A DNA stretch of 22,484 nt. Source: Candidatus Zixiibacteriota bacterium. Lineage in GTDB: Bacteria > Zixibacteria > MSB-5A5 > GN15 > FEB-12. The DNA is taken from positions 1 through 22,484 of the forward strand of contig JBGSIV010000099.1 in NCBI GenBank assembly GCA_041742355.1, given 5' to 3'. Position numbers and translations under genes: made by a program. This document shows, one piece after another, positions 2,618-20,492 of this stretch. Position 1 is the first letter of the stretch, and each line of letters starts with the position of its first letter. The notes below the pieces were generated by a model that made no database searches, was not told where the DNA came from, and was given only the letters and a program-made list of their open reading frames with translations.

Positions 2618-3841
2618 TTACCAGGGTTTGATGTCGAATGGGACTATAACTGTGTCCGCCACATCCACCCCATTCTTGGTTGCCGGCTTCCAGCGAGACT
2701 TCATAGCCTTGTCGGTTGCTGTGGAGTGAAGTGACACGGGCGCAGTTGTTCCTTCCGCGACAATCTCTGCCTTTACAGGAGTTCCGTCGCTTGCGATCTG
2801 CAGTCTGACTACCACACGCCCCGAAGCGTGGGTTGACTTCGCAATCGTCGAGTACTTAGCATCGCCGCCGTCGAAGATCATCTCCGCCTTACGATCGGGA
2901 ACCGCGGGCGCCGAGGATTCAACCTGCTCAGGAGGAATCGCCCCATCGGGCGACTGTCCAGAGCCATCGCTACTGCCGAATCCCCGGACGTCGCCAGCGT
3001 ATGGCGAAACAACCGGACTGTCTGGTTGCACAAAACCCAAGACAGCCGATGAAGTATCGAAAGATTCGGTCTGGTCGTCGCCGGGAATCGGCACAGTCCA
3101 CTGCGAATCCTGTTGATCCGTAATCCCGCTTTCGAACCGCACTGGGGTTCGATTAACGCTGTCACCTCCAAGTGGCATTCGCGGAGCCATACCCACAGCG
3201 ACAAGTACCGGGGGCGATGTTGAATTAGCCGATGCTTGACCGACGGCATCCGACCGTATCGGATCCTTCCGTTTGGGGGCTGGCGGGGGAGTTAAGACTG
3301 GCTCCAGAGGTGTCGAGTCGATGGCCCCGGCAGATGAGGTCTCTGCATTGCTCTCCGGTAGCAAGTCCGTCGGTACTCGATCTGCAATTAGAGATGGTAT
3401 GAGGAAAGCTGACGTCGCCACCAAGAGCACTGCCGCAGCGGCGGCGAGTTGGGTCCAACGAGCTCTCAGAACGCGGTACAGTCCCGACGGTTCAACAATT
3501 GGCGGCAGCGATACATTGCGGAGAGGCTTCAGCGCCTCACTCCATGTCTTGATGGCCCACGCGGCGTCATCCGAACCATATCCGAATTCTTTGACGAGCC
3601 GGTCAGTCAAATACGCTACGAATGAGGACTCTTGACTGCTCTGACGTGATAGCAACCAAACCGCGCCTATTTCAACTGATCGAGAGGCCAGAATGATATC
3701 GGAATCATTCGCATGCCCTGAAACGAACAGCGAACGCTCGACATGAAGAGGCGAGGCAAGTAACTCTGACTTCTCATTCACGACGTGCGTGGCTATTATT
3801 GAGGCCAAAGCCTGCCGAGAAGCATCATCGCCTGAACCCAT
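2618..3841 (-). CDS. TonB C-terminal-domain membrane protein with helical N-terminal domain
   Basis: ORF 2618-3892; first ATG at 3841 chosen as likely start. One hydrophobic segment (LAAAAAVLLVATSAFLIPSLI), a Pro/Ser-rich linker, and a TonB_C-like C-terminus (GRVVVRLQIASDGTP...AMKSRWKPATKNGVDVADTVIVPFDI). Confidence 0.75.
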   Translation of the reverse strand: MGSGDDASRQALASIIATHVVNEKSELLASPLHVERSLFVSGHANDSDIILASRSVEIGAVWLLSRQSSQESSFVAYLTDRLVKEFGYGSDDAAWAIKTWSEALKPLRNVSLPPIVEPSGLYRVLRARWTQLAAAAAVLLVATSAFLIPSLIADRVPTDLLPESNAETSSAGAIDSTPLEPVLTPPPAPKRKDPIRSDAVGQASANSTSPPVLVAVGMAPRMPLGGDSVNRTPVRFESGITDQQDSQWTVPIPGDDQTESFDTSSAVLGFVQPDSPVVSPYAGDVRGFGSSDGSGQSPDGAIPPEQVESSAPAVPDRKAEMIFDGGDAKYSTIAKSTHASGRVVVRLQIASDGTPVKAEIVAEGTTAPVSLHSTATDKAMKSRWKPATKNGVDVADTVIVPFDIKPW

Positions 3842-3996
3842 TGGTCTTGTCAGTTCCCCATTGTATATAGTGATCCACTGCGCAATCAACAATAGAACTG
3901 CCGTCGAAACCCTGCTGTCAGTCGTCGGTGCAAATCGATCCCGATCTCCATAACGGATGACCTGCGAACATCATGGATTGGGATTTCAACGATATC

Positions 3997-5484: not shown

Positions 5485-5930
5485 GGTTTCTCCTCCGGGA
5501 CTCTTTGTCCCATAGTCGGAGACAAAGAGCCCCCGTCTGTGATGCCCGCTAAACAGTCGGCGAGTATCGGGTTCTCAGTTGTTGGATTTGTGTGCTCGGA
5601 AAGAGCAAGTGAGGGAATCAGCCGTCGATTCTCAGGAAGGAGCCGGTCAGCCGGATGTCCTCGCAAAGCAGGCTGCGGGCCAGCGCTCGGACGTCGATGG
5701 ACCGGACATTTTCCCGCTTATATATTCGTCCCATTAGCTCCTCCAGATGGGCACAAGTTGGACACAACGAGGATTCTATCCGGAAATGCTGTCGGCAAAT
5801 GTATTGTCAATGACTAACTTGCACTGAATAACCCTCAAATGGCGGGCCATTGTGGACTATCTTCGAAACGTGGCGTGACAACTGACGGATGCCCTCTCAT
5901 AGTCAGCCAGCACGAGCTTTCGGTAGTGGG

Positions 5931-6268
5931 TCAGTTTGAAGTTTCATCCTCTTTTCCCTCCAACAGATTTACTATGTCTTCAATCTCCCAAAGATGATCG
6001 GTAACACTCGTAGCCATAGCGGGAGACACGCGCAACGTCTGGTGGGGCCGCACAAAGTTGTAGTACATGAAGCGCATGGCGACCGCATACGCAAGGTTTT
6101 GCACTTTCTTGGAGAAGCCATTGGTCAACACGATAAAGCGGCGCATGCCCATTCTCATTGTGAGGTTTTGACGTTCCACGAATGAGGTTGAAACATGCGC
6201 CTTTTTCAGTTTCTCAACAATTACCTGTCGTCTAACTCCAATACAAGCTAATGGGGATACCGACCCGT
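5931..6268 (-). pseudogene. IS1-family (DDE) transposase C-terminal fragment
   Basis: HVSTSFVERQNLTMRMGMRRF..LTNGFSKK...MYYNFVRPHQTLRVSPAMA..VTDHLW is the characteristic C-terminus of this transposase group. The 5' part is missing, cut at the IS3 end at 6269. Confidence 0.85.
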
Positions 6269-6924
6269 TGACCTCCCCCAATTTTATGGTCCAGTCATAA
6301 TCTCACATGTTCTGACTCTCTTGTCAATCGGTTCTCATAGTCGTGGGCGTACTCGCAGGGTGTCTGTTGACGGAGCGACCGGTGCGGACGATGCTAATTG
6401 TAGTCGTGTCGCCAGACTTCAAATTTCTGCCGGGCAGCGGCTGAAGTGCCTGACGGTGGTAGATGACTTTACCCGGAAAGCACCGAGATCTTCGTGGGAC
6501 GGTCGATCGGCACGCAGCAGGTGGCGAACGTTTCTGACCTCCTGGCGCAGGGTGGTCATCCCCTGCCGGAGGTCATTGTCAGCGGCCCCGGTCCGGAGTT
6601 TACCAGCGGGGCAATGGATCGGTGGGCGGAACGATGTGCAGTCAAGCTCTCGTCCATTGAGCCGGGCAAGCTGGGGCAGAACTGCTTTGTGGAGTCGTTC
6701 AACGGGAAGTTCCGGGATGAGTGTCTCAACGGCCATTTGTTCTGGATCTTAGCCGATGCCCGGCAGAAATTTGAAGTCTGGCGACACGACTACAATCAGC
6801 ATCGTCCGCACCGTTCCCTCGGCCAGCGGACACCTACCGAGTTCCTTGAAGAGTATGAGAATCGATTGACAGAACGAACGGAGACTTTGAGGTTATAACT
6901 GGACCAAAGAACGGGCGAAGGTCA
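6269..6924. mobile_element. IS3-family (IS407-like) remnant bounded by two inverted copies of the element's right end
   Basis: Starts TGACCT and ends AGGTCA (TG...CA). 6269-6436 is the reverse complement of 6757-6924 (168 bp each). No target-site duplication seen. Confidence 0.8.
6432..6898 (+). pseudogene. IS3-family transposase OrfB integrase-core fragment, frameshifted
   Basis: GQRLKCLTVVDDFTR, then a frameshift near 6485, then GPEFT...IEPGK..QN.FVESFNGKFRDECLN...WRHDYNQHRPHRSLG..TP. The usual DNGPEF catalytic motif reads GPGPEF. Confidence 0.9.
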
Positions 6925-7723
6925 GATCAGCGGCAGCATTCTCTTCCCATTCTTCAATGGTATCAGAGCTCAAAACCGCTGCACTCCGTGCGCGCCAATA
7001 GCGCTCACCGGTCTCGTCCTTCTGGCGGACGGACCCGCCCGTTACAAGCGTCTTCTCTCGCACATTTTGTAAGGTCCTTGCGAATTCCGGTAAGGCGGCA
7101 GTGCTGTTCGGCATTCAGAAGTCTAAAATATGCCAGAGAGCGCCTCAGGGTACATCCCTCACGTGAAGTTGCGGAATCCAGGGTGGTCCAAACGGATGGT
7201 GACCTCGGAGTGACACGCCCGAGGGGGACTGAGGGTAGGGCCCTCGTCAGCACCAGAGCCGGGGTTCTTGCTGCAAGCTGAAAGTGCAAGCCACGGGAAG
7301 CCGCTGACCCGACTGGCTGGTTGAGCGTATCCACGGCCGATTTTCGACGGAATTGTCCTCGGCCAGTTGGCATGCGATCACTGACGGAGTCTTGCGAAAG
7401 CAGCTGTCGCTTAGTGCTTCTGTTCATGATCCTCGTCAAGCGCGCGATGTTGAAGCAAATGTTGGCGGTCCACGTCAGAAAACAGTAGAACCGATGCTGA
7501 TCAGTTGGTCACCTGGTGTCTCACGGTGGACGGTGATCAGCCTTCCTGTGTTTCGTATCGAATCATAGTCGTATCACAACATGGTTGTTGAGAGAGCTTT
7601 CACAATTAATCTTGACAAGATTGTCCCCTTATGACATTGTATCTTAAGCGTAGGGCCGCATATCCACCTGGAGAGTGCTAACAGGCCTTATACTCCCAAC
7701 ATTCTCACCGCGGGGTTACTGAG

Positions 7724-10700
7724 ATGAAATCACTTCTGTGGATGATTGCCACCTTGGCAATTGCGGCTACTGTGTCCGCACAGGGATTGAACATTGACGG
7801 CGTCATCGTGGATGACGACTTCTCGTCGTTCGATTCAAACCGCTACATTCTCTATCACAATGCAGTCTATGACGCGGCCAATCAAAGTGTTAGACTAACC
7901 CCCGTAGCGACTAACCAAGCTGGCCGACTATATCTGAGAGACCAGTTCTGGATGGATAACTTCACGGTCCAGTTCGACTTCTATATGGGGGGTGGTTCGG
8001 GAGCGGATGGAATCGTCTTCGCTTTCACACAATCGCACAACTACGGCCGTTCAGACGGCGGATCGTTGGACTTTGCCGGTGCTACCGGTTACGGAATCGT
8101 ACTCAACACTTACTCCAACGCCGGCGACCCGTCCGAAGAATGTCTCGGACTGGTACGTAACGGCCCCAACAGCTATCTCTCGTATTGGTTGGCGCCCAAC
8201 GGTGCTCTGGAAGGCGGGATTTGGAGAACTGTCAGGGTAACGAATGAATCCGGCCATGTCCGAGTCTGGCTCGATGACACTCTCCGGATCAACTACCAAA
8301 TCGCCAATTATCAGCCTTTCGCCGGCTACTTTGGTTTCACCGCCGCAACTGGGGGATCGACGAACTACCATCGCATCGACAACTTCTTCATCGAGAATGC
8401 CTCCCAGATGAATGTCTGGGCCGACCTGGAGTGTCGATCAATAACCACTCACCCACCCCAACCGTTCGCAGGACAATCGGTTACGGTCTCTGCCGAGATC
8501 GTAAATTCCGGAGACTCAACCGTCCCAATCTTCCTGGTCGACTACTACGAGAGTCCTTCCGGCGCCTACATCGGTTCCGACACTGTACCAGGAATCCGCG
8601 CAGGAGGGCAATTCACCTCAGAAGTCGATTGGACTCCTGGGTGCGGCACTTATAACCTCACGGTAGAAGTTGACCCTCGGAACCTCATTCCGGAGGCCAG
8701 TGAACTCAACAATACGTTTTCGGCAACTGTACAGGCACTCTGTGACACCGGTCTCCAAGTGATAGCGCAGCCGCAGACTCACTCTGCTGGAATTGATGAC
8801 ACAGTGTCGTACAACATCCTTGTGGCGAATCGGAAGCCAGTCCCCGTGCAAGTCACTCTTGAGATAAGTGGTTTACCGTCGGAGTGGTATGCATCTACCC
8901 AAGACACGGTCTGGATTGAGGCGTGGGGAGAACGAAACCTCGCAATCTTGGTCCGGACACCAACCTCATGCGGCGCCGCTGGTCGGTACCCTTTTGTAGT
9001 CTCGGTCAATGCCGTGGATCTGTCGACAACAATTGAAAATGATCTCAGCCTTGAGATCACCTCTGATCCGCATATCATCGACTTGTTGCCCGCCAACGCC
9101 GCAAAGACCAGCACCAACTCCGTCTGGATCAATTGGACCACCCTCAATCATTCGACCAGTGTCGTCTACTATCGTATAGCGGGGACCACCACGTTCTCGC
9201 AGGCAACCGCGGCCGACGGTCGATTTCATAACGTCGAACTGACCAGTCTAAATTGGGATACGCAGTACGAATGGTACTGCCAGAGCGTTTCTGCCTGCGG
9301 ATCGAGCCTGAGCGAGATCCGGCACTTCCGGGTTGGCCACGGCATAGTGTTCCTCGATGCCCCATTTACCATTATTATCGGACGCGATTACAACCAGGAG
9401 CGGACGATAGCCGTCATGAATGAAGACAATCAACCGCATACGCTTCTGCTCGAAGTCATCAACTCGCATTCGGATCTGATTGTAGGCTTCATCGGATCGG
9501 GTAGTATGGACGAGCAGATTACTCTCCAGCCGGGCGAATCGCGGGACGTCACCGTTGTGTTCCATACACAGGACGCCACCAGCCGGCACTATGACGTGTT
9601 GTTTCGGCTCTTGGCCGATGCCGAGACTGTCACCCCCATCTCGGCACTCGCCCCGTGTGCTGTCGATGTAACCTGGCCGGTGGTGGATTTCCGTTTTGAA
9701 GAAGTCTCTTTTGATTCACTCAGCATGATCAGGACGCTTCGAGTTTGTAACGATGGTGATCAGCTCTCCGACCTGAATGTCTTTATCGCGGAGTCATTCG
9801 GCATGAGCATGACCCTCTATCCGAACGTCAACCATGCGTCTCTGCAGCCCGGAGAATGCCTTCAGTTCGCCGTTATTCCGAACTTTCCCGATACGTCGTC
9901 CGGTCGCCAAGGTTGTTCCGCGCTGCTCACCGCAACGGCCGCAGGAGTATCCACTCATTATCGAGTCGAGGACTGCTGCCACGAGACGATCTACGAGGTA
10001 CACGTTCCGAACGTAATCACCTGTCAGAAGGAACACGTCAATTCTTGGTACTGCACGAATCGACCGTATATCCGGATCTATCTCAGCTCCTTTGTCGGAG
10101 GAGACGCAGGCGGCAAGGATTTCTCTGAGGACGTCACGCTAAACATGCATTTCGCAACTCCAGCGGGTTGGCAGCCGCGACCTCATGACGTCCAGGTATT
10201 TGTGAATGGCCATTCGGTAGCTCAACTGCTGAATGGCGTGCCGAAGGGTGACTACAGCTTCTCGATCGATCCGGCATTTCTAAACTCTGCAACTACTGGG
10301 GCCGCGACCAACATCATCGAGCTTTCAACGCAGCATCTCAACGGCGGCCACTACGTTTTGACCGCGGGCGCCCAGTTGTGCCGATGTGTAGCCGACTATT
10401 CTGAGCGCATTTGTGCCGCGACACAGCAACAGGCAGTGCAGGTGCTGCTCGACCGCCCCTACTTGCGAACTGGACCGGAAGGTCTGAGCGTCGCCATTCA
10501 AGAACCGCTCGAGGGAGCCGTACTCAGCGCCGGTTATCGCGTAAATCTGAGGGCCCAAGTAAACGATCAGACCGGTGCACCATTCGACGCCGCCAACGTC
10601 CTCGTCACGACTTGCGATGGGAAGCAGATCCTTCTCGGGCATACGAGAGACGGTGAGTACCAGGGGACGTGGGTGCCCGGGCAGTGCTTGGAGCAATGCG

Positions 10701-13700
10701 GTCTTGACTTTGTCGCGTCGGCTTGCGGTACATCGGGCGTCCAGTCCGTTGGGGTTGTCGTGCAGTGTCCCGTGACGCTCTACCACCTTGAGTCTATTGA
10801 GCCGGCCTATGATGAGGTCTCCGAAATCATGCACGGCGGCATACTTCATCGCTACTACCGTGTCCGAGATGTCCAGACGACTCAACCAGTCGAGGGAGTG
10901 ACGCTGTATTTCGCCGATGGACAGATACTGGTCACCGATAGCAAGGGCGAGTTCACCATCAGCCTCAGGCCCGACGATCTGGGCTGGAGGGACATTGGTT
11001 TGTACGTTTGGGACATGCTTGACCACGTTGAGTTTGCCGGGCAGGAAGTCGCGCTCGATGAACTTCTGGCCTTTAATGTCGACCTGCAGCCCCGCACCTA
11101 CACCAGGGAGTGGGATCTCTTGGCCGGAGTAAGTGTCGAAGTGGGCGGTGGTATCGGAGCCGGGATCGGTCCTCTTGGTATTCGGGCGGCGCGGCTATCT
11201 GTCTCTGGATCATCGGCAATCGGCGGGACTATTTCGGCGGAAGTCAGCTCGGTGGATCCACTCTGGCTGACGTATTCGCGGCGGATAGAAACATCGGTGG
11301 GAGCGGGGCTTTCGGTCGGTCGCATCCCGGCGCTGTCGTTCCTCAACTACCGTGTTGGTGGAGGGGCCAATCTCAAACTTGAAGCCGTCGGGAATCAGTC
11401 GTTTTCATTCAACGACCCGTACGAAGATTCGCGACAGACTGTCGCCCAGTCCATCGTTTTCCTGGAAAGCGGAACGCGCTTGGCCACCGGATTTCTTTCG
11501 TACGCGTGTGTGCCAATTCTTGACGGCCTGATAAACTATGCGAAGTCGCACAACGATTACGTTGCGTATTTTGCGAATAGCGAAGATCAGCTGGGGGCCT
11601 CTCTCGGTCTGGAGTTTTCTGCCGACGCCGGCTGCAAGACCATGCTTTACAATTCCCAGGCAAACAAGTATGTCGGCATCGAGCTGCCCAACGCGGAGCT
11701 TTCCCTGAGTCTCATGGCATCGATCGACCAGTACAAGCACTCCGTGTTCGGAGACAACCACGAGGGTGCGGACCGCGCAATCACTCTGACAGAAGCCGCC
11801 CAGTTCGATATGTCTCTCCTCAAGTTGCGGATTGGCACCGGAGCCGGCGGTCCGATCCTACCTTGGTTCGAGCAGTTGTTGCCTTATTGGAGCCTCAGCT
11901 ATGGAGGCGAGCTTTCAGAGTCAGTTGAGTTCGACTCCGACTGGCAACCGACTGGCGGTTCGGTGACGCTGCTCCAGGACGATCAGGGGTTGAGTACCAA
12001 TCCTGAGGCGCTCCACGACTTCCAGGAGCTGACCGTGTCATTCGGGCCGGACATAGCCCGGGGGCTCGTCAGCACCGGAACTAACCTGGCCAACCTGATG
12101 CTGACGGCATCGAATCCGGCAGGTCCCCTCATGTCTGGCGGCGGGCTGGCCCTCGGCAACGACGTCGCCGATGTATTGACGTCTGCTATCCAGTTGGAGG
12201 AAGATGTGAAATCTGGCGAACTGGAGTACACCAAGTCCTCGATCCGTACTCAAGCTTTCAGTTTGCCTGTGAACGTGCCGATAGATCTTGGCGTCGGCAT
12301 CGAATGGAGTCTCGACCTGGGCGTGAATCTCGCATTTTCGAGAACGCAGTCTTTCGAAACCACTAAGGGAGCGATCAACGGTCAGGAATTCAACCGCTTC
12401 CCTCTCGAGGAATACGAAGAAGATGAATACCTGCAGGATGACCTGAGCCTCTGGGGGATACTGGAGCCCGTCTTTATGCACGCCATCAATGCCGCCCGTG
12501 AGCATATCCTCGGATTGCTGAATCGCGTCCAGGTGCTGATCGAGAGCGGCGTGGAACTTATTCTTCAGACCCAACCCGAGATCATCAACGGTGGAGCCCA
12601 GCTCTCTGTCTCTGCCGGTTCGTACCCTGCTGGCTATACCGCTCAGATTATCAGCTTTGCAGTCAACAGAGAGGCAGCGCCCGAGGGTGCCGGAGTGACG
12701 CCATATCGTGGGCGAGCCGTTCCGAGTTTCGCATCCAGAGACACGGTGGCATCGTTCACGTCGGTGGGAGAGGCCTATGAGGTGAAAATCCTCGGTCTAT
12801 CCATGGTACCGTTGGACACGTTTGTCAATCCCATTGTCTTCAAGATTGTAGTCACGGATTCCGATCTCGTCGCCTCCGGATACACTCCTGCGGACCGCCC
12901 ATGGCTAAAGGTGTTCCACTGGGATCGCGTGAGATGCATATCAGTGGAGAGTCCATCTTCTCTTTCCGGTGACACCATTCTCAGCTCTTTGACAGCCGGT
13001 GGCCAGTACGTTGCCGGTCTCTTCGGTGCACCGGTTGATCTACTGCCTCCGGTCATCGACAGCCTGAGCCCGGAACACGGGGCGGTCATTCACCATGACA
13101 GTCCGATTCTCAGGGCGTTTGCATCTGACACAGGCATCGCCGCCAGTGGCCTCAGTCCGGTTCGCGGGTTTGCAGTACTCGATCAGGATACGATTCCGTT
13201 CAGCTTCGAAACCGGGAAAGCTTTCCGTGGCTGCTTCTATGCCGAAGTGATTTCGCCTCTTGGTTCTGGAGAGCACCGTTATCGCGCTCACGTCTTCGAC
13301 AACGCCGGCAACCAGACCGTTTCCTCTGAGGTGACTTTCATCTACTCTGACTCGCTCTGCGATAGCGGCCGGTTGATTGTACGACCCGAGCCTCAGCGGT
13401 GGTTCTTCCAAAATTCCGTGCCGTCATTCATTGATACGCTCTACATCGGCGATCTTGGTGGTTGCAGTGTGTCAGAGATTTCCACCATAAACCTCACCGT
13501 GCTCGACTCGGTAGCTGTCCCAGTACTCACTACACAGGTGCTTGCCGCCGGGGAGTATGACTCGAGCCTTGGATTCAACGGCGACGTCCTGGCAGTCCTG
13601 GTTGAGGCGGCTGATCTCATCGCTCCATTCGGGGAGATCTACGATACAACAGTCCAGGAGGTCGATTCATACGGAACGCTTCAGAATGGTGAACCGTATA

Positions 13701-13918
13701 GGCTCTCGGGAAAATTCCTGCTGACGGGCCACCTTTCTGGCGATCTGAACAATGATGGTCTGATAAATCTCTCTGATTTGTCGATCTTGAGCACTCACTT
13801 CTTCACGAGTTCCGATCAGCCGGGACGTGTCGACCCGATAGCAGCGGACTTTGACCGCGATGGACAGTTGACAATATCCGACATCTGTTCGCTCGTTAGA
13901 TTCGTGTTTAGGCAGTAG
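7724..13918 (+). CDS. 2064-aa secreted multidomain protein: signal peptide, L-type (legume/ConA-like) lectin, CARDB, Ig/Fn3-like domains, C-terminal dockerin type I
   Basis: Signal peptide MKSLLWMIATLAIAATVSA. Lectin motifs GGGSGADGIVF and YFGFTAATGGSTNYHRI. CARDB motif VDPRNLIPEASELNN. Paired Ca-binding loops GDLNNDGLINLSD and ADFDRDGQLTISD at ~13739-13915. Confidence 0.9.
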   Translation: MKSLLWMIATLAIAATVSAQGLNIDGVIVDDDFSSFDSNRYILYHNAVYDAANQSVRLTPVATNQAGRLYLRDQFWMDNFTVQFDFYMGGGSGADGIVFAFTQSHNYGRSDGGSLDFAGATGYGIVLNTYSNAGDPSEECLGLVRNGPNSYLSYWLAPNGALEGGIWRTVRVTNESGHVRVWLDDTLRINYQIANYQPFAGYFGFTAATGGSTNYHRIDNFFIENASQMNVWADLECRSITTHPPQPFAGQSVTVSAEIVNSGDSTVPIFLVDYYESPSGAYIGSDTVPGIRAGGQFTSEVDWTPGCGTYNLTVEVDPRNLIPEASELNNTFSATVQALCDTGLQVIAQPQTHSAGIDDTVSYNILVANRKPVPVQVTLEISGLPSEWYASTQDTVWIEAWGERNLAILVRTPTSCGAAGRYPFVVSVNAVDLSTTIENDLSLEITSDPHIIDLLPANAAKTSTNSVWINWTTLNHSTSVVYYRIAGTTTFSQATAADGRFHNVELTSLNWDTQYEWYCQSVSACGSSLSEIRHFRVGHGIVFLDAPFTIIIGRDYNQERTIAVMNEDNQPHTLLLEVINSHSDLIVGFIGSGSMDEQITLQPGESRDVTVVFHTQDATSRHYDVLFRLLADAETVTPISALAPCAVDVTWPVVDFRFEEVSFDSLSMIRTLRVCNDGDQLSDLNVFIAESFGMSMTLYPNVNHASLQPGECLQFAVIPNFPDTSSGRQGCSALLTATAAGVSTHYRVEDCCHETIYEVHVPNVITCQKEHVNSWYCTNRPYIRIYLSSFVGGDAGGKDFSEDVTLNMHFATPAGWQPRPHDVQVFVNGHSVAQLLNGVPKGDYSFSIDPAFLNSATTGAATNIIELSTQHLNGGHYVLTAGAQLCRCVADYSERICAATQQQAVQVLLDRPYLRTGPEGLSVAIQEPLEGAVLSAGYRVNLRAQVNDQTGAPFDAANVLVTTCDGKQILLGHTRDGEYQGTWVPGQCLEQCGLDFVASACGTSGVQSVGVVVQCPVTLYHLESIEPAYDEVSEIMHGGILHRYYRVRDVQTTQPVEGVTLYFADGQILVTDSKGEFTISLRPDDLGWRDIGLYVWDMLDHVEFAGQEVALDELLAFNVDLQPRTYTREWDLLAGVSVEVGGGIGAGIGPLGIRAARLSVSGSSAIGGTISAEVSSVDPLWLTYSRRIETSVGAGLSVGRIPALSFLNYRVGGGANLKLEAVGNQSFSFNDPYEDSRQTVAQSIVFLESGTRLATGFLSYACVPILDGLINYAKSHNDYVAYFANSEDQLGASLGLEFSADAGCKTMLYNSQANKYVGIELPNAELSLSLMASIDQYKHSVFGDNHEGADRAITLTEAAQFDMSLLKLRIGTGAGGPILPWFEQLLPYWSLSYGGELSESVEFDSDWQPTGGSVTLLQDDQGLSTNPEALHDFQELTVSFGPDIARGLVSTGTNLANLMLTASNPAGPLMSGGGLALGNDVADVLTSAIQLEEDVKSGELEYTKSSIRTQAFSLPVNVPIDLGVGIEWSLDLGVNLAFSRTQSFETTKGAINGQEFNRFPLEEYEEDEYLQDDLSLWGILEPVFMHAINAAREHILGLLNRVQVLIESGVELILQTQPEIINGGAQLSVSAGSYPAGYTAQIISFAVNREAAPEGAGVTPYRGRAVPSFASRDTVASFTSVGEAYEVKILGLSMVPLDTFVNPIVFKIVVTDSDLVASGYTPADRPWLKVFHWDRVRCISVESPSSLSGDTILSSLTAGGQYVAGLFGAPVDLLPPVIDSLSPEHGAVIHHDSPILRAFASDTGIAASGLSPVRGFAVLDQDTIPFSFETGKAFRGCFYAEVISPLGSGEHRYRAHVFDNAGNQTVSSEVTFIYSDSLCDSGRLIVRPEPQRWFFQNSVPSFIDTLYIGDLGGCSVSEISTINLTVLDSVAVPVLTTQVLAAGEYDSSLGFNGDVLAVLVEAADLIAPFGEIYDTTVQEVDSYGTLQNGEPYRLSGKFLLTGHLSGDLNNDGLINLSDLSILSTHFFTSSDQPGRVDPIAADFDRDGQLTISDICSLVRFVFRQ

Positions 13919-13979
13919 CTTGAACAGACTGATGGTTCGATGCCAGTTAACCTGCACCGAACCGAATGAACTGCTTCAT

Positions 13980-14013
13980 GCACTGTGGGCGGCCGCCGAG
14001 CCGCCCACAGTGC
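13980..14013 (+). terminator. GC-rich hairpin downstream of the giant gene
   Basis: Perfect 14-bp stem GCACTGTGGGCGGC / GCCGCCCACAGTGC with a 6-nt loop, followed by an AT-rich tail but no clean U-tract. Confidence 0.55.
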
Positions 14014-14255
14014 CTTAGTAATTAATCCCCCAGTGTATTGGCCGCGCAAGGGTGCACCATATGTAGAATCGGATGTCACAGATGCGATGACTGCCGAATG
14101 TTTGAATAGGGAAGGTGCCTTAGATTGCAGCCTCTGAGCAAGGATGTGGAACGCTCTATCCGGCCTGGGTTAAGTTGCCCATTACGAAGCTTTAGACTAA
14201 TCCTGTAGTGCGATCCACATATTCTTGCCGGTTCCCCAACCATCCGCCCTTGGGG

Positions 14256-14541
14256 TCAGAGCCTCAGCCCATCCAGCGCGTCTGCCGGGTGATCTGGGGC
14301 GAGGATAGCGTAGATAATCGTGTTTGTATACCCGAATAGCCCATCACTTCTACTTGGTAGGGGTGTCGACGCCAGATATCACGAGATGACTGGCGAAAGT
14401 GTGGCACGGCGCGTACAGCTTCGTCAGATTTGGGATTCCTGCCGCCGCAGCGATCTTGATCAGCTCCGGGCGAAGTCGATTGTGGGAACAGCAGGAGTTC
14501 CTTTCGGTGAACATGTGGTGGCAATCGGCAGCATACGACAC
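14256..14541 (-). pseudogene. tyrosine recombinase/integrase C-terminal remnant
   Basis: Across shifting frames: LIKIAAAAGIPNLTKLYAPCHTFASHLVISGVD / MGYSGIQT / IIYAILAPDHPADALDGL. This matches a decayed H..RHTFAS...MGH......IY box II, with catalytic H/R/H substituted plus stops and frameshifts. Confidence 0.8.
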
Positions 14542-14779
14542 TCGCGATCAGGGCTATTCTTGACTTGGCTGGTGTAATCTGATGCCTGCCCCGGCAGGCA
14601 GGCGACGGCTGCTTGCGATCAAGCTTCAGTGCCACTGGACGATTCGATCAACCGGCAAGCCAATTCCGCACAGCAGCTTACCAAGACAGGCGGGCCATGG
14701 CGACCTATTCCCGAACGGTGGCATAGCCGAACGGGCTTCTTCTGCTCGACCCGGTTCCCCTCACTCGGTTCAACCTAAA

Positions 14780-15296
14780 CGGTTCACCCCCACGCGTGTG
14801 GGGACGACTGCCCGTCCAGGTTCTCAACTTGGGCTATCCGCGGTTCACCCCCACGCGTGTGGGGACGACATGGTCAACACTTGTGCGCCCTCAAGCTCGG
14901 CCGGTTCACCCCCACGCGTGTGGGGACGACGGAGTAACCTGTCAATTAAAAAGCTCGGTATGCGGTTCACCCCCACGCGTGTGGGGACGACTCCCATATC
15001 ACTTCCCCGTCGGGGTGTCATACCGGTTCACCCCCACGCGTGTGGGGACGACGCCAGCAAGAAGGCGGTTGGGAAATGACATGCCGGTTCACCCCCACGC
15101 GTGTGGGGACGACATGCCCTGTTTCGGTCGCACAGTCACATTCGCCGGTTCACCCCCACGCGTGTGGGGACGACGCCATCGGGTGAGGTTCGCCGGGTTG
15201 CAGATCCGGTTCACCCCCACGCGTGTGGGGACGACCTTGCCTTGCCTCGTTTCATTGGGTTCGGGTTCGGTTCACCCCCACGCGTGTGGGGACGAC
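14780..15296 (-). CRISPR. type I-E-like CRISPR array: 9 identical 29-bp repeats, 8 spacers of 32 bp
   Basis: CGGTTCACCCCCACGCGTGTGGGGACGAC starts at 14780, 14841, 14902, 14963, 15024, 15085, 15146, 15207 and 15268 (61-bp period), with internal hairpin CCCCAC/GTGGGG. The minus-strand form ends ...GGTGAACCG like the E. coli I-E repeat (...ATAAACCG), so minus orientation is inferred. Confidence 0.97.
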
Positions 15297-15520
15297 GATA
15301 TGGGATGTGTTACTACCGGCACGCCGAGGCCACAAGAAAGTGGATGAAGAACACCCTAATTTGATCACCGACCCGTCTGCTGATATGTCACTAAGTCACA
15401 TTTCGCTTAGGCCGCCTCCGTCTTTCGCATCAACAAGCCTGTACCTCTGGTTCAAGTAACTATAGGCGGCTCGGTAGCTCCTGCCTCGGAACGAGCCGAT
15501 GTTTTAGTGAGGATGATCCG

Positions 15521-16531
15521 ATGTATGACAAGAGACGTGACCATCAGGATGTCTATCGTGTTCCTTTGCTGCGGCATGCAGAGCTCCCCACCTGGTACTT
15601 TGACCAAGAGTGCGTTACGGCGGCTCGACCGATACCCCACATCGACCTTCAGCTGGGGCCTTCCCATGAAGACGGTTTGCGTGTCAAGAAGATTGAGATT
15701 GTCTTATGCTACAGAGGGTTCACGGGAGATATCCAGCCTCTTGACCCGCTGACTCTGCTGCTCGAACCATTCGATTTCGGATACGGCCCTGACAATCTTC
15801 TTAAAGGTCCGAATGATTCTGGGTTAAGAATTACCCGAGACTCGGCCAGACAGCGCAGCAAATATCGTCAGGATGATGACAGTATAGACCTGTTGCATTT
15901 TGGCAACTCTTTCAGTCTCTTCGCGGGTCGGGTTTGGGACGAATACTGCCTGTTTGAAGGTAGTTCGACCATCTGGAGGACAGACTTCTGCGGCTGGATT
16001 TATCGGTTCACTGCCTTGACCTCGGATATGATTGACTATCCCTTCGTTGATGAATTGAATTGGGATCGACGACGCAGAGAACTGCAACATTTACTCCAGA
16101 AGCGGGAGGCCTGTGAAATCAATGCGTTTCACGAACCTCATTGGAGTTCGTTTATTGAAGGCGACCAATGGCCTCCAAACCTAGCGGAACGGGCACGGCA
16201 GCGCGATGCCTGCGTAACCATTGATGACTTCCGTGCCAAGGTCAAATGAGGTCAACCTTTGGAAGACTTCTTGCACGCAATTGTCGATGCTTTCGTAGGT
16301 TACCTCCTGAGTACGCGCCAGATCAAACGATGCGGCTTCTGCCGGGGATTCTTCCCATTCGAGGAAAGAAAGCTCTACTGCTCGCTGCGTTCTGAAGGTA
16401 GGGATTGCGGCAAGAGGGCCCGTAATCGCCGTAGTTATTTGAAACGGACGGAAGACCAGAAAGAACGGATTCGACAGGGGAATCGTGAGCTCCGTTCTTT
16501 CTACCAACAAAGGCAAATCCGAAAGTATTAA
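15521..16531 (+). pseudogene. protein with C-terminal CGNR-type zinc finger, interrupted by one in-frame TGA
   Basis: ORFs 15521-16249 and 16259-16531 share a frame (AAA TGA GGT CAA CCT TTG). The C-terminal part has IKRCGFC..FF...KLYCS......CGKRARNRR. GAGG precedes the ATG at 15521. Confidence 0.65.
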
Positions 16532-16700
16532 CCCTACTGAACAGAGATTTGCTCACCTGCTTTTCAGCCTACTGGTTTCACTCACGACACCGCGCGATGT
16601 AGTATCTACCGACAAGATCTTTTTCCCGCCAAATTGGCCGAGAGGATGAGCAAAGGCCAGCCGAACGAGGCCCGATGCCTCCTTAAGGAGATCGGCAAAG

Positions 16701-16901
16701 TTGCGGGATGAACGGTCAAGAAATGAACCTCTGTGTCGAATCAGGGAGATCCGAGAACTACCTGAGTCGGAAGGTCGAGAGTTCCTCGAGAAACGATTCT
16801 CGCATTCAGAGTATGAGGAGATCTGCGATAATCTTCGAGGGTTTTTTGACCTGCTCCGGACTTGGCGCCAGAACAAGGCCGGCGGGAGCACGGCACCCTA
16901 A
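16701..16901 (+). CDS. small hypothetical protein upstream of the serine recombinase
   Basis: AAGGAG 9 nt before a TTG start. The motif EYEEICDNLRGFFDLLRTW resembles small helical ORFs I recall preceding large serine recombinases (not verified by search). Confidence 0.5.
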   Translation: MRDERSRNEPLCRIREIRELPESEGREFLEKRFSHSEYEEICDNLRGFFDLLRTWRQNKAGGSTAP

Positions 16902-17071
16902 GTTCAGCTTGCCGAATGCCTACACTCCTGTCACACGCGTTTGAAACAGGGCGGTAGATTGAAATGGAGACCTTCAGATCGAATACGACTCCCATTCAGT
17001 GCAGCGATGCAATAACAATGGTTGCGGATCCGTCGCAGGAAATGTTTTTCAGGCTCTATGAGAGAATGTGA

Positions 17072-17100
17072 TTGACAGAGAAACCTGTGTCCCTTTTAAT
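17072..17100 (+). promoter_or_regulatory. near-consensus sigma70 promoter pointing toward the recombinase
   Basis: TTGACA-17 bp-TTTAAT in an AT-rich intergenic region. Confidence 0.65.
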
Positions 17101-17688
17101 AAGTTTAACATGTCCTCCTGCTTAATCACAAGCTGACTTTCCATAGTTCTTCAGAGTTACTCACGAATTACAGACAGAGGCAAGAAAAGGTGAATGTTCC
17201 ATTCACTAAGGCGCTCATAGATTTAGACAGTTCCGGTTCTTATCGGCGGCTGGCGAGGCGAGAGGGTCTATCGAAACAGAACAAAGGGTCCAAGCATTGG
17301 ATTATCAGTGAGTTAGACGCAACTCGAAACCGAAGCGTGTCTGAAAAAGATGGGGATTATGAACTTGTCATTGATCGTTCTGATCGGACCAGAACAAGAC
17401 ATGATCTAAGAGTGAGTACAATCCGACGGGATAGGGGAGTGCAACTGATCGATGGCGGTATCGACTCCACAGAACACAATAACGCCCTCAGACTCAAAGG
17501 TTCAATCTCTTATGGAAAATCTCATTTTGATGAAAACGGTCTAAGCGGCTTACATGTTCTGAAGATGCTGCAAATCACATTGGACTTCAGGCTCTTCACC
17601 AGCTGTTGATGCAAGAATTCCTCGATTCGTATATCGGCACAGCATGTCGTGAGTGGCGGAAATGGCTGTGCCGTAGGAGATCGACAAA

Positions 17689-19137
17689 ATGAAATGCGTT
17701 CTCTACACTCGCGTCTCCTCAAAAGAACAAGAGAGAGAAGGATTCTCAATCCCCGCCCAGCGGAAGCTGCTCCTTGAGTATGCTCGTAAACGCGGCATCG
17801 AGGCCGCCCAGGAGTTCAGTGACGTCGAAACGGCCAAGTCGGCTGGCCGAACCGCTTTTGGGCAAATGGTTCAGTTTCTCCGTATCCATAGAGACATTCG
17901 CGCTATACTGGTTGAGAAGACCGATCGACTCTACCGCAATCTTCGCGATTGGGTGGAGATTGAGGATCTTGGCCTCGAAGTCCACCTGGTCAAAGAGGGG
18001 GAGGTCCTCACCAAGGACAGCCACTCGCACACCAAGTTTATTCACGGTATCAACGTCTTGATGGCCAAGAACTACATCGACAACCTCTCTGAAGAGGTTA
18101 AAAAGGGCATGCAGGAGATGGTGGAAGAGGGAGAGTGGCCACACCGGGCGCCACTGGGCTATCTGAACGACCGGGTTACCCACACTCTTGTTGTCGACCC
18201 AGATCGTGGGCCGATAGTCGCTCGGTTGTTTGAAACCTATGCAACCGGCCGTTACTCGATAAGCCTTCTTCGGGAAAAGGCCAAGGAACTCGGGCTCCGA
18301 TACCGAGGCTCAAACAGCCTCGTTAGCCGAAGCTGGATTGAGAAGCTACTCAAGAATCCGATCTATTCGGGCCGGTTTAAGTGGAAAGGCAGAATCTATC
18401 AAGGGACCCATATGCCGCTCATTTCTCAGGAGACCTTCGACCGGGTTCAGGAGACTCTCCAAAATGTTCGAAAACCTAAAGGGCACAAACATCAGTTCGC
18501 CTTTCGAGGACTACTGACCTGCGGGCATTGTGGATGCGCCATAACAGCGGAGATCAAGAAGGGCCGGTACATTTACTACCGGTGTACCAATGGCAAGGGA
18601 AGGTGCCCTCAGCCCTACATCCCCGAGTCTCATTTAGCCGAAATGCTCGCTGAGACGGTCAAGCGGATTACAATCAGCGCCGAAACAGCAGAGGAAATCC
18701 GCCTTGCGCTCAAGGACAGCTTCGACAAAGAGCAGGATTTCCGTGAAACCGAACTCAGGCAGCTTCGCCAACAATCCGATAAGCTTCAGGCCAGAATCGA
18801 TCAGTGTTATCGGGACAAGTTGGATGGCCAGATTACCGTGGGTTTCTGGCAGACCACTCACCATCGGCTTCTGGAGGACCAAGATCGGCTGTCCGATCGC
18901 GTGAGACGGCTGGAGAAAGCAAACAGAGATTACTACCAGACAGGGGTCAGCTTCTTAGAACTCGCCCAGTCCGCTCATTCTCTCTATGTCGAGCAGAAAC
19001 CCAAAGAGCAGGCTGAACTGCTGCGAAACATACTTTCGAACTGCGTGCTCACCGACCTAAACCTATCCCCAACATACAAAAAGCCCTTCAACTACCTTGT
19101 CGAAGAGCCCCGAACTGAAATATGGCGGAGGAGGTAG
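17689..19137 (+). CDS. large serine recombinase (integrase)
   Basis: AGGAGA RBS; catalytic YTRVSS, SIPAQ, EKTDRLYRN; recombinase domain (APLGYLN...LLKNPIYSG...HMPLISQETFDRVQ); zinc ribbon (GLLTCGHCG...YYRC...C); coiled coil. Confidence 0.96.
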   Translation: MKCVLYTRVSSKEQEREGFSIPAQRKLLLEYARKRGIEAAQEFSDVETAKSAGRTAFGQMVQFLRIHRDIRAILVEKTDRLYRNLRDWVEIEDLGLEVHLVKEGEVLTKDSHSHTKFIHGINVLMAKNYIDNLSEEVKKGMQEMVEEGEWPHRAPLGYLNDRVTHTLVVDPDRGPIVARLFETYATGRYSISLLREKAKELGLRYRGSNSLVSRSWIEKLLKNPIYSGRFKWKGRIYQGTHMPLISQETFDRVQETLQNVRKPKGHKHQFAFRGLLTCGHCGCAITAEIKKGRYIYYRCTNGKGRCPQPYIPESHLAEMLAETVKRITISAETAEEIRLALKDSFDKEQDFRETELRQLRQQSDKLQARIDQCYRDKLDGQITVGFWQTTHHRLLEDQDRLSDRVRRLEKANRDYYQTGVSFLELAQSAHSLYVEQKPKEQAELLRNILSNCVLTDLNLSPTYKKPFNYLVEEPRTEIWRRR

Positions 19138-19210
19138 GATTCGAACCCACGGTACCCGAAGGTACAACGGTTTTCAAGACCGCCGCTTTCGACCACTCAG
19201 CCACTCCTCC
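19123..19210 (-). tRNA. tRNA-Ser (anticodon UGA)
   Basis: GGAGGAGTGGCTGAGTGGTCGAAAGCGGCGGTC-T-TGA-AAACCGTTGTACCTTCGGGTACCGTGGGTTCGAATCCTACCTCCTCCGCCA: acceptor stem, long variable arm, GTTCGAATC T-loop, encoded CCA. Confidence 0.97.
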
Positions 19211-19396: not shown

Positions 19397-19568
19397 AGGC
19401 ATACCAGCGCGCGCAAAGTCAAACCAGCGCTTGCAGGCCAAACCAGCACTTGCAGGGCAAACCAGCGCAGGCAAGGCAGACAAGCTAAGGCAAGCCAAAC
19501 CAGCACACGCAAGGCAGACCAGCGCTTGCAAGACAAACTACTGCAGGCCGGGCGAGCCAGCACATGCT
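19397..19568. repeat. degenerate 19-bp tandem repeat, ~9 units
   Basis: Units such as agtcaaaccagcgcttgca, ggccaaaccagcacttgca, gggcaaaccagcgcaggca, agccaaaccagcacacgca, aggcagaccagcgcttgca. Confidence 0.85.
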
Positions 19569-19580
19569 CGGCGAATCAGG

Positions 19581-20492
19581 CTACTGCTGCCGGCCCAGCA
19601 ACTCCTCGAACCGCTTGGGGACCCCGATCATATCGGTCCCGCAGTCATCGGTAAAGGTCCACCGGGTCGTGTTGTCTTCGAAGGTAAACGCAATCGTTCC
19701 GTCGTCAAACGTCTCCCGCACGAACCAGGAGCCATCGTACGAAAACGTCGTATCCCCCGTGCACTCGGCCTGCAACGCAAACTGGTGCGTGATCGAACCG
19801 GCGGACGGGCAACCGCCGCTGTCGAATACCTGGGCCAGGTTCAGCATCACATTGGAGTAAACGCCTGATCCTTGCATGGCAATTTCGCACGTCACTTGCG
19901 AGGCCGATTTCCGAGGCAGTATCGAGAATGCGAAGTACTGCGTGCCGTCGATCTCGACATCTCCCTGCGCCAGCAGCTCTCCGGCCATCGAGAACCGCTG
20001 TCCGACCACGACCGAGTCATCCTCCTGAGTCATCAGGATCTTGATTCCCGCGGTAATGCCCACCAACAGGGCCGAATCCGGCCACTGGACGGGGCCGGTC
20101 GCATGGCGGAACTGCACCGAGTCCTCGACCGTCAAGTACCCGTCCCCCATCGAACCCGCACCGTAGTAGTACCAGTACTTCGAGCCCGAGTGATACGCGA
20201 CCAGTGTCGAGTCCTGCAGCGCGAGATCGGCGCCGGTCCGGGCGCCGACAGGCAGCTGGTCGGCCGAGTCAAGTACGTCTTCGACGAGGCTGCCGGTCCA
20301 GCTCATCATGAATTCCGTCATACCGCCGAAACCTGCGTCGTCATACATCTCCCGAACCATCTGGAATTCGGCGTCGGTCGTGTCGCCCGCCGCGAGTTGC
20401 GAGTTGGTCGACTCGTCATCGCCGCAGCCCCAGAGGAACCCCAGGCCGCTGATTGTCAGACCGAATACCGCTACCATAAGAATTCGCTTCAT
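19581..20492 (-). CDS. hypothetical lipoprotein (303 aa), paralog of 20650-21561
   Basis: GGGGAG RBS + ATG at 20492; signal MKRILMVAVFGLTISGLGFLWG-C lipobox. The track start at 20621 is probably overextended. Confidence 0.85.
   Translation of the reverse strand: MKRILMVAVFGLTISGLGFLWGCGDDESTNSQLAAGDTTDAEFQMVREMYDDAGFGGMTEFMMSWTGSLVEDVLDSADQLPVGARTGADLALQDSTLVAYHSGSKYWYYYGAGSMGDGYLTVEDSVQFRHATGPVQWPDSALLVGITAGIKILMTQEDDSVVVGQRFSMAGELLAQGDVEIDGTQYFAFSILPRKSASQVTCEIAMQGSGVYSNVMLNLAQVFDSGGCPSAGSITHQFALQAECTGDTTFSYDGSWFVRETFDDGTIAFTFEDNTTRWTFTDDCGTDMIGVPKRFEELLGRQQ

Follow-up and report, generated by a model that had tools for sequence, protein, structure and literature searches.

A cas-less type I-E CRISPR array in a tRNA-targeting serine-recombinase island of an uncultured Zixibacteria-like bacterium, probably a remnant of an island-borne system

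The window analysed here, 22,484 nt long, is the whole of one contig (C99) of a 4.37-Mb, 310-contig assembly that is 93.76% complete. The comparisons below support the presence in it of a type I-E CRISPR array which is devoid of cas genes at its own locus and lies inside a tRNA-targeting serine-recombinase island. We regard this array as probably the inert leftover of an island-borne I-E system that lost its operon and leader through an internal deletion. Such a deletion would have taken out the operon together with the short leader, and perhaps the newest spacers as well, with the repeats on the trailer side left in place; deprived of Cas6e, Cascade, Cas3 and Cas1-Cas2, the array would stay unprocessed, guide nothing and gain no spacers. 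As most likely read, the locus is a snapshot of CRISPR-Cas loss: one genome has a whole I-E system and a sister genome a leaderless stub, both within one family of islands. This contrast helps to explain the patchy occurrence of type I-E in the phylum, where 7 of 251 genomes have Cas7e. Because orphan arrays are a common and already described phenomenon, the finding is useful rather than surprising; the stub would gain importance only if its expression and its use in trans were demonstrated.

The features of the window discussed below are the following (coordinates, strand where assigned, description):

5840..5878, plus: att-like far-end junction A (score 39.8, the best in the assembly); related islands have the motif too, on their recombinase strand
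5931..6898: two insertion-sequence transposase fragments (rve_3, from the domain scan)
7724..13918, plus: 2064-aa secreted-type protein (lectin-like, CARDB, dockerin), cargo between junctions A and B
14290..14547 (approximate), minus: tyrosine-recombinase-like C-terminal remnant with stops and a frameshift, from sequence comparison
14688..14726, plus: att-like far-end junction B, a weaker copy (score 18.2, second best in the 4.37-Mb assembly)
14752..14767, minus: possible degenerate 3' half-repeat at the trailer end (weak)
14780..15296, minus: type I-E CRISPR array, from repeats and spacers, hairpin, and orientation as in cas-linked loci
15297..15520: leader-side flank with neither leader end nor cas2, a probable deletion scar, from leader and promoter comparison
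15521..16531, plus: interrupted gene with a C-terminal CGNR-like cysteine motif and an in-frame TGA at 16247-16249
16716..16901 (about), plus: small conserved island-core gene with homologues in 15 of 42 loci
16902..17688: stretch without the HTH gene and tyrosine recombinase seen in relatives, from locus comparison
17689-19137, plus: large serine recombinase, open frame, 482 aa (Resolvase, Recombinase and Zn-ribbon domains)
19123-19210, minus: tRNA-Ser(TGA), the integration target, with the core TGGCGG at 19123-19128

The array and its leader-side flank

As the earlier note had described, the array consists of nine base-identical 29-nt repeats, which start at positions 14780, 14841, 14902, 14963, 15024, 15085, 15146, 15207 and 15268 with a period of 61, and eight unique spacers of a uniform 32 nt. 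The palindromic repeat, its hairpin on the minus strand (-14.4 kcal/mol) with a short 3' tail of 4 nt, and the regular spacers are those of type I-E arrays, and the identical repeat belongs with I-E cas operons, being found after cas2 at several loci. The minus strand of the array corresponds to the strand that follows cas2 in these loci; it represents the crRNA sense and, therefore, the leader side of the array is the right flank. The possible half-repeat left of the array has a local score of 17, a value reached by 3% of 5000 shuffles and by 1% of 1087 window segments, and may weakly agree with a leader on the right.

A scan of the whole window confirmed that no cas gene lies near the array: none was found in the 7.2 kb on the leader side or in the 14.8 kb on the trailer side. 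Exact copies of the repeat came up in 20 stretches of genome sequence and in 41 metagenome rows; their sources include Chloroflexota, Blastocatellia and further lineages, but no other listed array from the host phylum has it, and it does not occur among the viral contigs of IMG/VR. For comparison of leaders, loci with at least 100 nt visible upstream were combined with the phylum's own arrays, and merging of near-identical leaders yielded 30 groups. In 19 of these, cas genes are present within 500 nt upstream, mostly cas2 at a distance of 22-132 nt, and 18 of the 19 cas-adjacent leaders end in AG[T/A/C] (AGT in 15, AGA in 2 and AGC in 1), the single exception being an array that interrupts cas1. 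The leader-side flank in the window, by contrast, ends in ATC; over its 224 nt, the best similarity to any leader is 20, compared with a null mean of 21 from shuffles, and similarity over the 100-nt leaders likewise does not exceed that of shuffled sequence. Promoter-like sites number 0 against 1.0 expected, in what is a weak test. A leader-side flank of 7.2 kb free of cas genes and ending in ATC favours deletion of the operon, and 15297..15520 is probably the scar, although no cas remnant is present at the deletion point.

Leaderless stubs of this repeat are not unique to the window. Among the 11 cas-less leader groups, two are long arrays that keep the AGT end (which is kept with no cas in view at L056 and L069), six comprise just one or two repeats, and the last three, with 4-5 repeats each, are leaderless, free of cas genes and built from the identical repeat. 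The neighbours of these three are phage protease and capsid genes, a beta-clamp-like ORF and a CoA-transferase, respectively; the first (L045:16-3880) directly follows the phage genes and has at least 4 repeats up to the contig end. Cas-free stubs similar to L045 were also seen at L044/L050 and L061. At L043, an array with the same repeat starts inside cas1, 14 nt past the aligned N-terminal part, which suggests an ectopic array or a misassembly. Within the window, an imperfect palindrome located by eye at 15385-15401, between the array and the interrupted gene, could be a regulator site.

The island, its borders and its relatives

The large serine recombinase, reported earlier as intact and about 2.4 kb from the array, indeed forms an open frame that starts 2,393 bp past the array end. 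It abuts and overlaps the 3' end of tRNA-Ser(TGA), its last codons being the antisense of the tRNA 3' end, as befits a tRNA-targeting serine-recombinase island. The nearest named homologue, 65% identical, is labelled Zixibacteria, and we take the host to belong to that phylum; homologues at E<=1e-80 are present in 55 of 250 other genomes of the phylum, and no relative was found in viral contigs. We examined 42 of the 67 other listed places, namely 41 loci plus that of G001, a genome of the same genus; the island side is visible over at least 5 kb in 32 of the 41 loci and over at least 10 kb in 26. A tRNA is present in 38 of the 41, and the family uses a wide range of tRNAs as targets (Ser, Gln, Asp, Asn, Arg, His and Glu). 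A brief literature search, too thin to claim absence, returned no paper on CRISPR cargo in this recombinase island family.

No extended second copy of the tRNA 3' end was found; instead, the far ends are short-core sites, each with a tRNA-3'-end-like core followed by a short reading frame, at 5840 WRAIVDYLRNVA-stop. These frames are conserved and belong to the xRAIVD..RT.A or WRGLRDDFRNW types (the window, L085, L103, L113, L150, L119, L018 and others). With a weight matrix built from seven far-end sites in other genomes, junctions A and B rank first and second in the assembly, the third-best score being 15.5; as these seven sites had originally been picked out by a matrix containing the window sites, the ranking has some circularity, especially where the weaker site at 14688 is concerned. 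Across about 1 Mb of islands, the recombinase strand gave 15 matrix matches and the opposite strand 4; of the former, 7 are the training sites, 2 lie in the window and 6 are new, these last being located 9-32 kb upstream of their own recombinases. Junctions A and B share a 34-nt pair (family D7, at 5841 and 14689) that is found again in a tRNA-Ser relative, at a distance of 18 kb on the upstream side of its recombinase, and stacked far-end sites are also present in L085 and L113. Arm symmetry is 14/40 for both junctions, a value that 48% of the background reaches. From these sequence features we infer that the far-end sites may be attachment junctions carrying the recombinase's own C-terminus, a family trait by which the enzyme would seem to swap its C-terminus on integration; a recombinase-tail profile detected no second tail in the window. 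Junction A is likely the outer border of a 13.3-kb island (5840-19128). Junction B, with a core resembling the tRNA 3' end and an element arm, lies 53 bp left of the array. Whichever far site pairs with the recombinase, the array is inside the island, between the recombinase and the far-end sites, pointing away from the former and with its trailer towards the far end, as in G001, a position that favours an island-borne origin.

The island of G001 provides the closest parallel and a further argument for the deletion. In contig C24 of this genome (L016:8798-19798 and L017:52-6091), a recombinase of the same family, 49% identical, belongs to an island that spans about 46 kb. The far-end site of this island, at a distance of 44.6 kb from its recombinase, encloses an intact I-E operon and an array with 32-nt spacers and the same polarity as in the window. 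Unlike the window, G001 has a complete cas3-cas8e-cas11-cas7-cas5-cas6e-cas1-cas2 operon, confirmed as I-E by PADLOC, a leader of about 20 nt ending in AGT between cas2 and the first repeat, and the HTH/tyrosine-recombinase pair together with a QatC-like gene. Its array comprises 30 repeats, all identical (30/30), and hence the identity of the repeats in the window, described in the earlier note as pristine, holds as an observation but carries little weight as evidence. The G001 repeat differs from that of the window at 3 positions and no spacers are shared, which counts against a direct derivation; G001 is therefore an analogue rather than the direct ancestor of the window array. The other relatives contain nothing comparable: array or cas matches number 0 in the 41 loci, and 18 further stretches, 15 of them island-side extensions, likewise contain no array and no cas genes. 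The rarity of such cargo, along with that of Cas7e in the phylum, is consistent with the deletion reading. The check proposed earlier, whether homologues of this recombinase also carry arrays, thus revealed no recurring cas-less cargo, the only linked case, G001, having its own complete operon.

The remainder of the island core in the window is incomplete and decayed, in line with loss by deletion. The ORFs at 15521-16249 and 16250-16531 correspond to a single 310-aa ORF in G227, which shows that the TGA at 16247-16249 interrupts a gene; the alignment runs through this stop, with 34% identity over 198 aa. The 242-aa ORF retrieved only itself among proteins of 133-424 aa and had no usable Atlas match, its relative coming from the fetched loci. 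On the other side of the array, the fragment near 14290-14547 resembles a tyrosine-recombinase-like C-terminal fragment of G002, with 47% identity over 34 aa (E=0.001). The decay of the immediate neighbours claimed earlier is thus borne out by the comparisons with G227 and G002, but Pfam confirmed neither of the names given to them: 'CGNR' and 'Tyr integrase' both reflect motif likeness. In G002 itself (L020:17900-18160), at the same tRNA-Ser, only the last 88 nt of the recombinase gene are kept, fused to the tyrosine-recombinase-like C-terminal fragment that resembles the window's remnant. Homologues of the small gene at 16716..16901 are always located just upstream of an HTH/tyrosine-recombinase pair, and the tyrosine recombinase is present in 20 of the 32 relative loci with at least 5 kb visible; of both genes of the pair there is no trace in the window.

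Cas genes, sequencing runs and the provenance of the array

Genome-wide searches of the kind suggested earlier, for an I-E cas operon and for a second array, gave no match. None of the families Cas1, Cas7e, Cas6e, Cas5, RAMP, Cas3-HD and DevR was detected in the assembly, not even as a fragment, the controls being positive each time; in a tblastn search with the seven I-E Cas proteins of G001, identified by PADLOC as Cas3e, Cas8e, Cas7e, Cas5e, Cas6e, Cas1e and Cas2e, the best E value was 0.06. The repeat occurs nowhere else in the assembly at up to 6 mismatches, and a generic scan for periodic repeats revealed no other CRISPR-like array, leaving this array as the only one in the assembly and not a duplicate of another. 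The absence of all seven families from this assembly, 93.8% complete and in 310 contigs, would suit an orphan array, and together with the singularity of the array it favours the deletion. None of the remaining periodic repeats of the genome was accepted as CRISPR; the example looked at more closely, in contig C107 (L023:6244-6510), has five near-identical 57-nt palindromic units with no unique spacers and is REP-like.

The fragmentation of the assembly counts against the deletion and in favour of a different explanation, namely, that the host has an I-E system with this repeat that is unassembled or unbinned, either at a second locus or as an operon between two same-direction arrays collapsed by the assembler. 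We consider this unlikely. In the phylum sample, the repeat pattern is present in 10 of 251 genomes, 8 of which have four or more copies; five of the seven other array-bearing genomes have Cas7e, and the two exceptions, G113 and G229, have their arrays on short contigs of fragmented assemblies. In G113, cas6e lies 279 nt upstream of the array on a 2.5-kb contig, showing that an assembly 98% complete can miss most of a cas operon, and in G229 (85% complete) the leader side of the array is the contig end. Among the eight, the host genome alone combines a long visible leader side with an absence of cas.

Three DNA runs of one study (X1, X2 and X3), available as contigs only, bear on the same question; X1 is probably the source of the assembly and so not independent of it. 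The host has a depth of about 9, 2.5 and 0 in X1, X2 and X3, respectively. The array/flank junctions are real, because in X1 the left flank (10500 onward) joins the repeat at a depth of 9.0 and the right flank (15269-16307) does so at 7.3. The in-frame TGA of the interrupted gene is also present in X1's own contig, with no other letters there. More contigs bearing this or a near-identical repeat exist in X1 than the window explains, at odds with a simple remnant: depth over the array is 319 and 190 against about 9 on the flanks, a different spacer stands beside the first repeat, there is a skipping joint at a depth of 17.9, and no single piece among those listed spans the array. A longer array or an unbinned operon in the host organism may be compatible with these data. 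Against a missing system, however, depths of 18 and 5 over the array were obtained in X3, which contains no host flanks, and hence other community members carry similar repeats; the two window spacer units listed in X1 have depths of 7.2 and 9.3, like the flanks and apart from the extra joint; and the first and last letters of the different spacer are those of spacer 1, as expected of a short-k assembly bubble, which we infer it to be. Furthermore, the right flank joins the repeat directly in X1 with no leader end, whereas L056 and L069 keep AGT, and not even a fragment of the seven families is available to represent the missing operon.

Another possibility is that a repeat-spacer block from an unrelated donor was placed at the far end of an island that never carried cas genes, by repeat-mediated or illegitimate recombination. 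The wide distribution of the exact repeat outside the phylum, the three other leaderless cas-free arrays and the 53 bp that separate the array from junction B all speak for such a capture, and L045, beside its phage head genes, fits it as well as it fits a deletion. Nevertheless, we consider capture very unlikely, since polarity and position match those of the cas-bearing island in G001 and the same element shows other deletions. The suggestion that the locus is a recently captured array fragment is accordingly retained with respect to the fragment, a fresh capture being less favoured than deletion from an island-borne system. Both routes have the same functional outcome, an inert orphan.

Spacers, possible function and other cargo

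No target was identified for any spacer. In the host genome there was no match within 8 mismatches, the best having 9, which is the chance level, and tRNA-Ser was not matched. With the whole array as query, INPHARED phages gave no match at E<=10; the best 30 of 56 PLSDB records corresponded to the repeats of other arrays, except for one 33-nt match at E=0.5 that is partly repeat. Spacers 5-8 (4 of the 8), searched as gapped patterns, had 0 matches in IMG/VR, and spacer queries against 285 genomes of the phylum matched repeats only. Among 1,745 spacers of related arrays, none is common to the window array, and 1.26 Mb of fetched loci, including many cas operons, contained no match within 8 mismatches. 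Self-targeting and anti-cas or regulatory roles thus receive no support from the genome or from loci with I-E operons. A homing array of a CRISPR-associated transposon is equally unsupported, with no integration-site spacer and no Tn7-like gene family among the 28 window ORFs scanned. Otherwise, the missing targets do not discriminate between the readings. Absence of spacer targets is usual for uncultured hosts.

These results leave little room for the proposal of the earlier note that the island carries a guide cassette borrowing a host I-E system against competing elements or for regulation. Its crRNAs would be loaded by Cascade in trans, supplied by an unassembled host locus or an incoming element; the repeats are intact, an I-E hairpin is possible, and isolated arrays are described as able to work in trans in PMC13142298, with the same proposed for plasmid orphans in PMC9071438. 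Still less likely than capture, this reading is opposed by the lack of any tested cas gene in the assembly, of a spacer target in phages, plasmids, the genome or the fetched loci, of a promoter-like site (the weak test above), of recurrence in the 41 related loci and of a leader end, whereas the working isolated array in PMC13142298 has a leader nearly identical to that of the cas-adjacent array. A more specific version, a leaderless stand-alone cassette of eight spacers at the far attachment end, transcribed from an intergenic region of the island itself and served by Cascade from a different locus or a co-infecting element, is similarly a long shot. Were it true, the three other leaderless arrays, one of them in a phage head module, would form an unrecognised class of mobile guide cassettes.

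Several kinds of cas-less array are already known. Orphan arrays have been defined as arrays in genomes lacking cas and surveyed, with cas loss, as assumed here, given as one of three cited origins (PMC13142298), and they have been counted on plasmids (PMC9071438). With those of the former survey, among which 18 of type I-E are reported from putative Pseudomonas aeruginosa prophages, the window array shares canonical repeats, short length, an assembly without cas and a mobile-element setting; it differs in being carried by an island of the tRNA-targeting serine-recombinase type, in an uncultured Zixibacteria-like host, and in having no leader, whereas the I-F orphans of that survey keep theirs. 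CRISPR3 of P. aeruginosa PA10145, described in the same source, similarly lies far from cas and is linked to mobile DNA, but its genome supplies a cognate cas operon and its leader is near-identical; nothing of either kind was found for the window array. Phage mini-arrays and crRNA-like regulatory RNAs (bioRxiv 10.1101/2024.10.29.618823) are likewise cas-less repeat-spacer DNA on mobile elements, and the anti-cas orphan CRISPR4 of Escherichia coli (cited in PMC13142298 and PMC9071438) is a cas-less array stranded in a chromosome. These, however, use the host Cas system or target cas genes, whereas the 8 spacers of the window array are ordinary ones, for which neither a match to self or to cas nor a Cas partner was found.

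Other parts of the window and of the island family also contain conspicuous sequences. Beyond junction A, an 841-aa open-ended ORF (2-2524, minus) has Hsp70/actin-like motifs by eye, no Pfam match and a weak PADLOC match to PDC-M61B (E 6e-4); it adjoins a TonB-C-terminal protein (2618-3892, minus), and the region has an island-like GC of 0.56 versus 0.61. On the host side, upstream of the tRNA, about ten degenerate 19-nt tandem units occupy 19397-19586. In 12 of the 41 relative loci and in G001, a QatC-like gene and a conserved 259-aa partner adjoin the HTH/tyrosine-/serine-recombinase core (L087-L089, L091, L094, L099, L102, L103, L105-L107, L110 and L016); the G001 copy of the QatC-like gene matches with a PADLOC E value of 7e-43, and the recurrent arrangement suggests that the two genes may form a fixed defence-like module.
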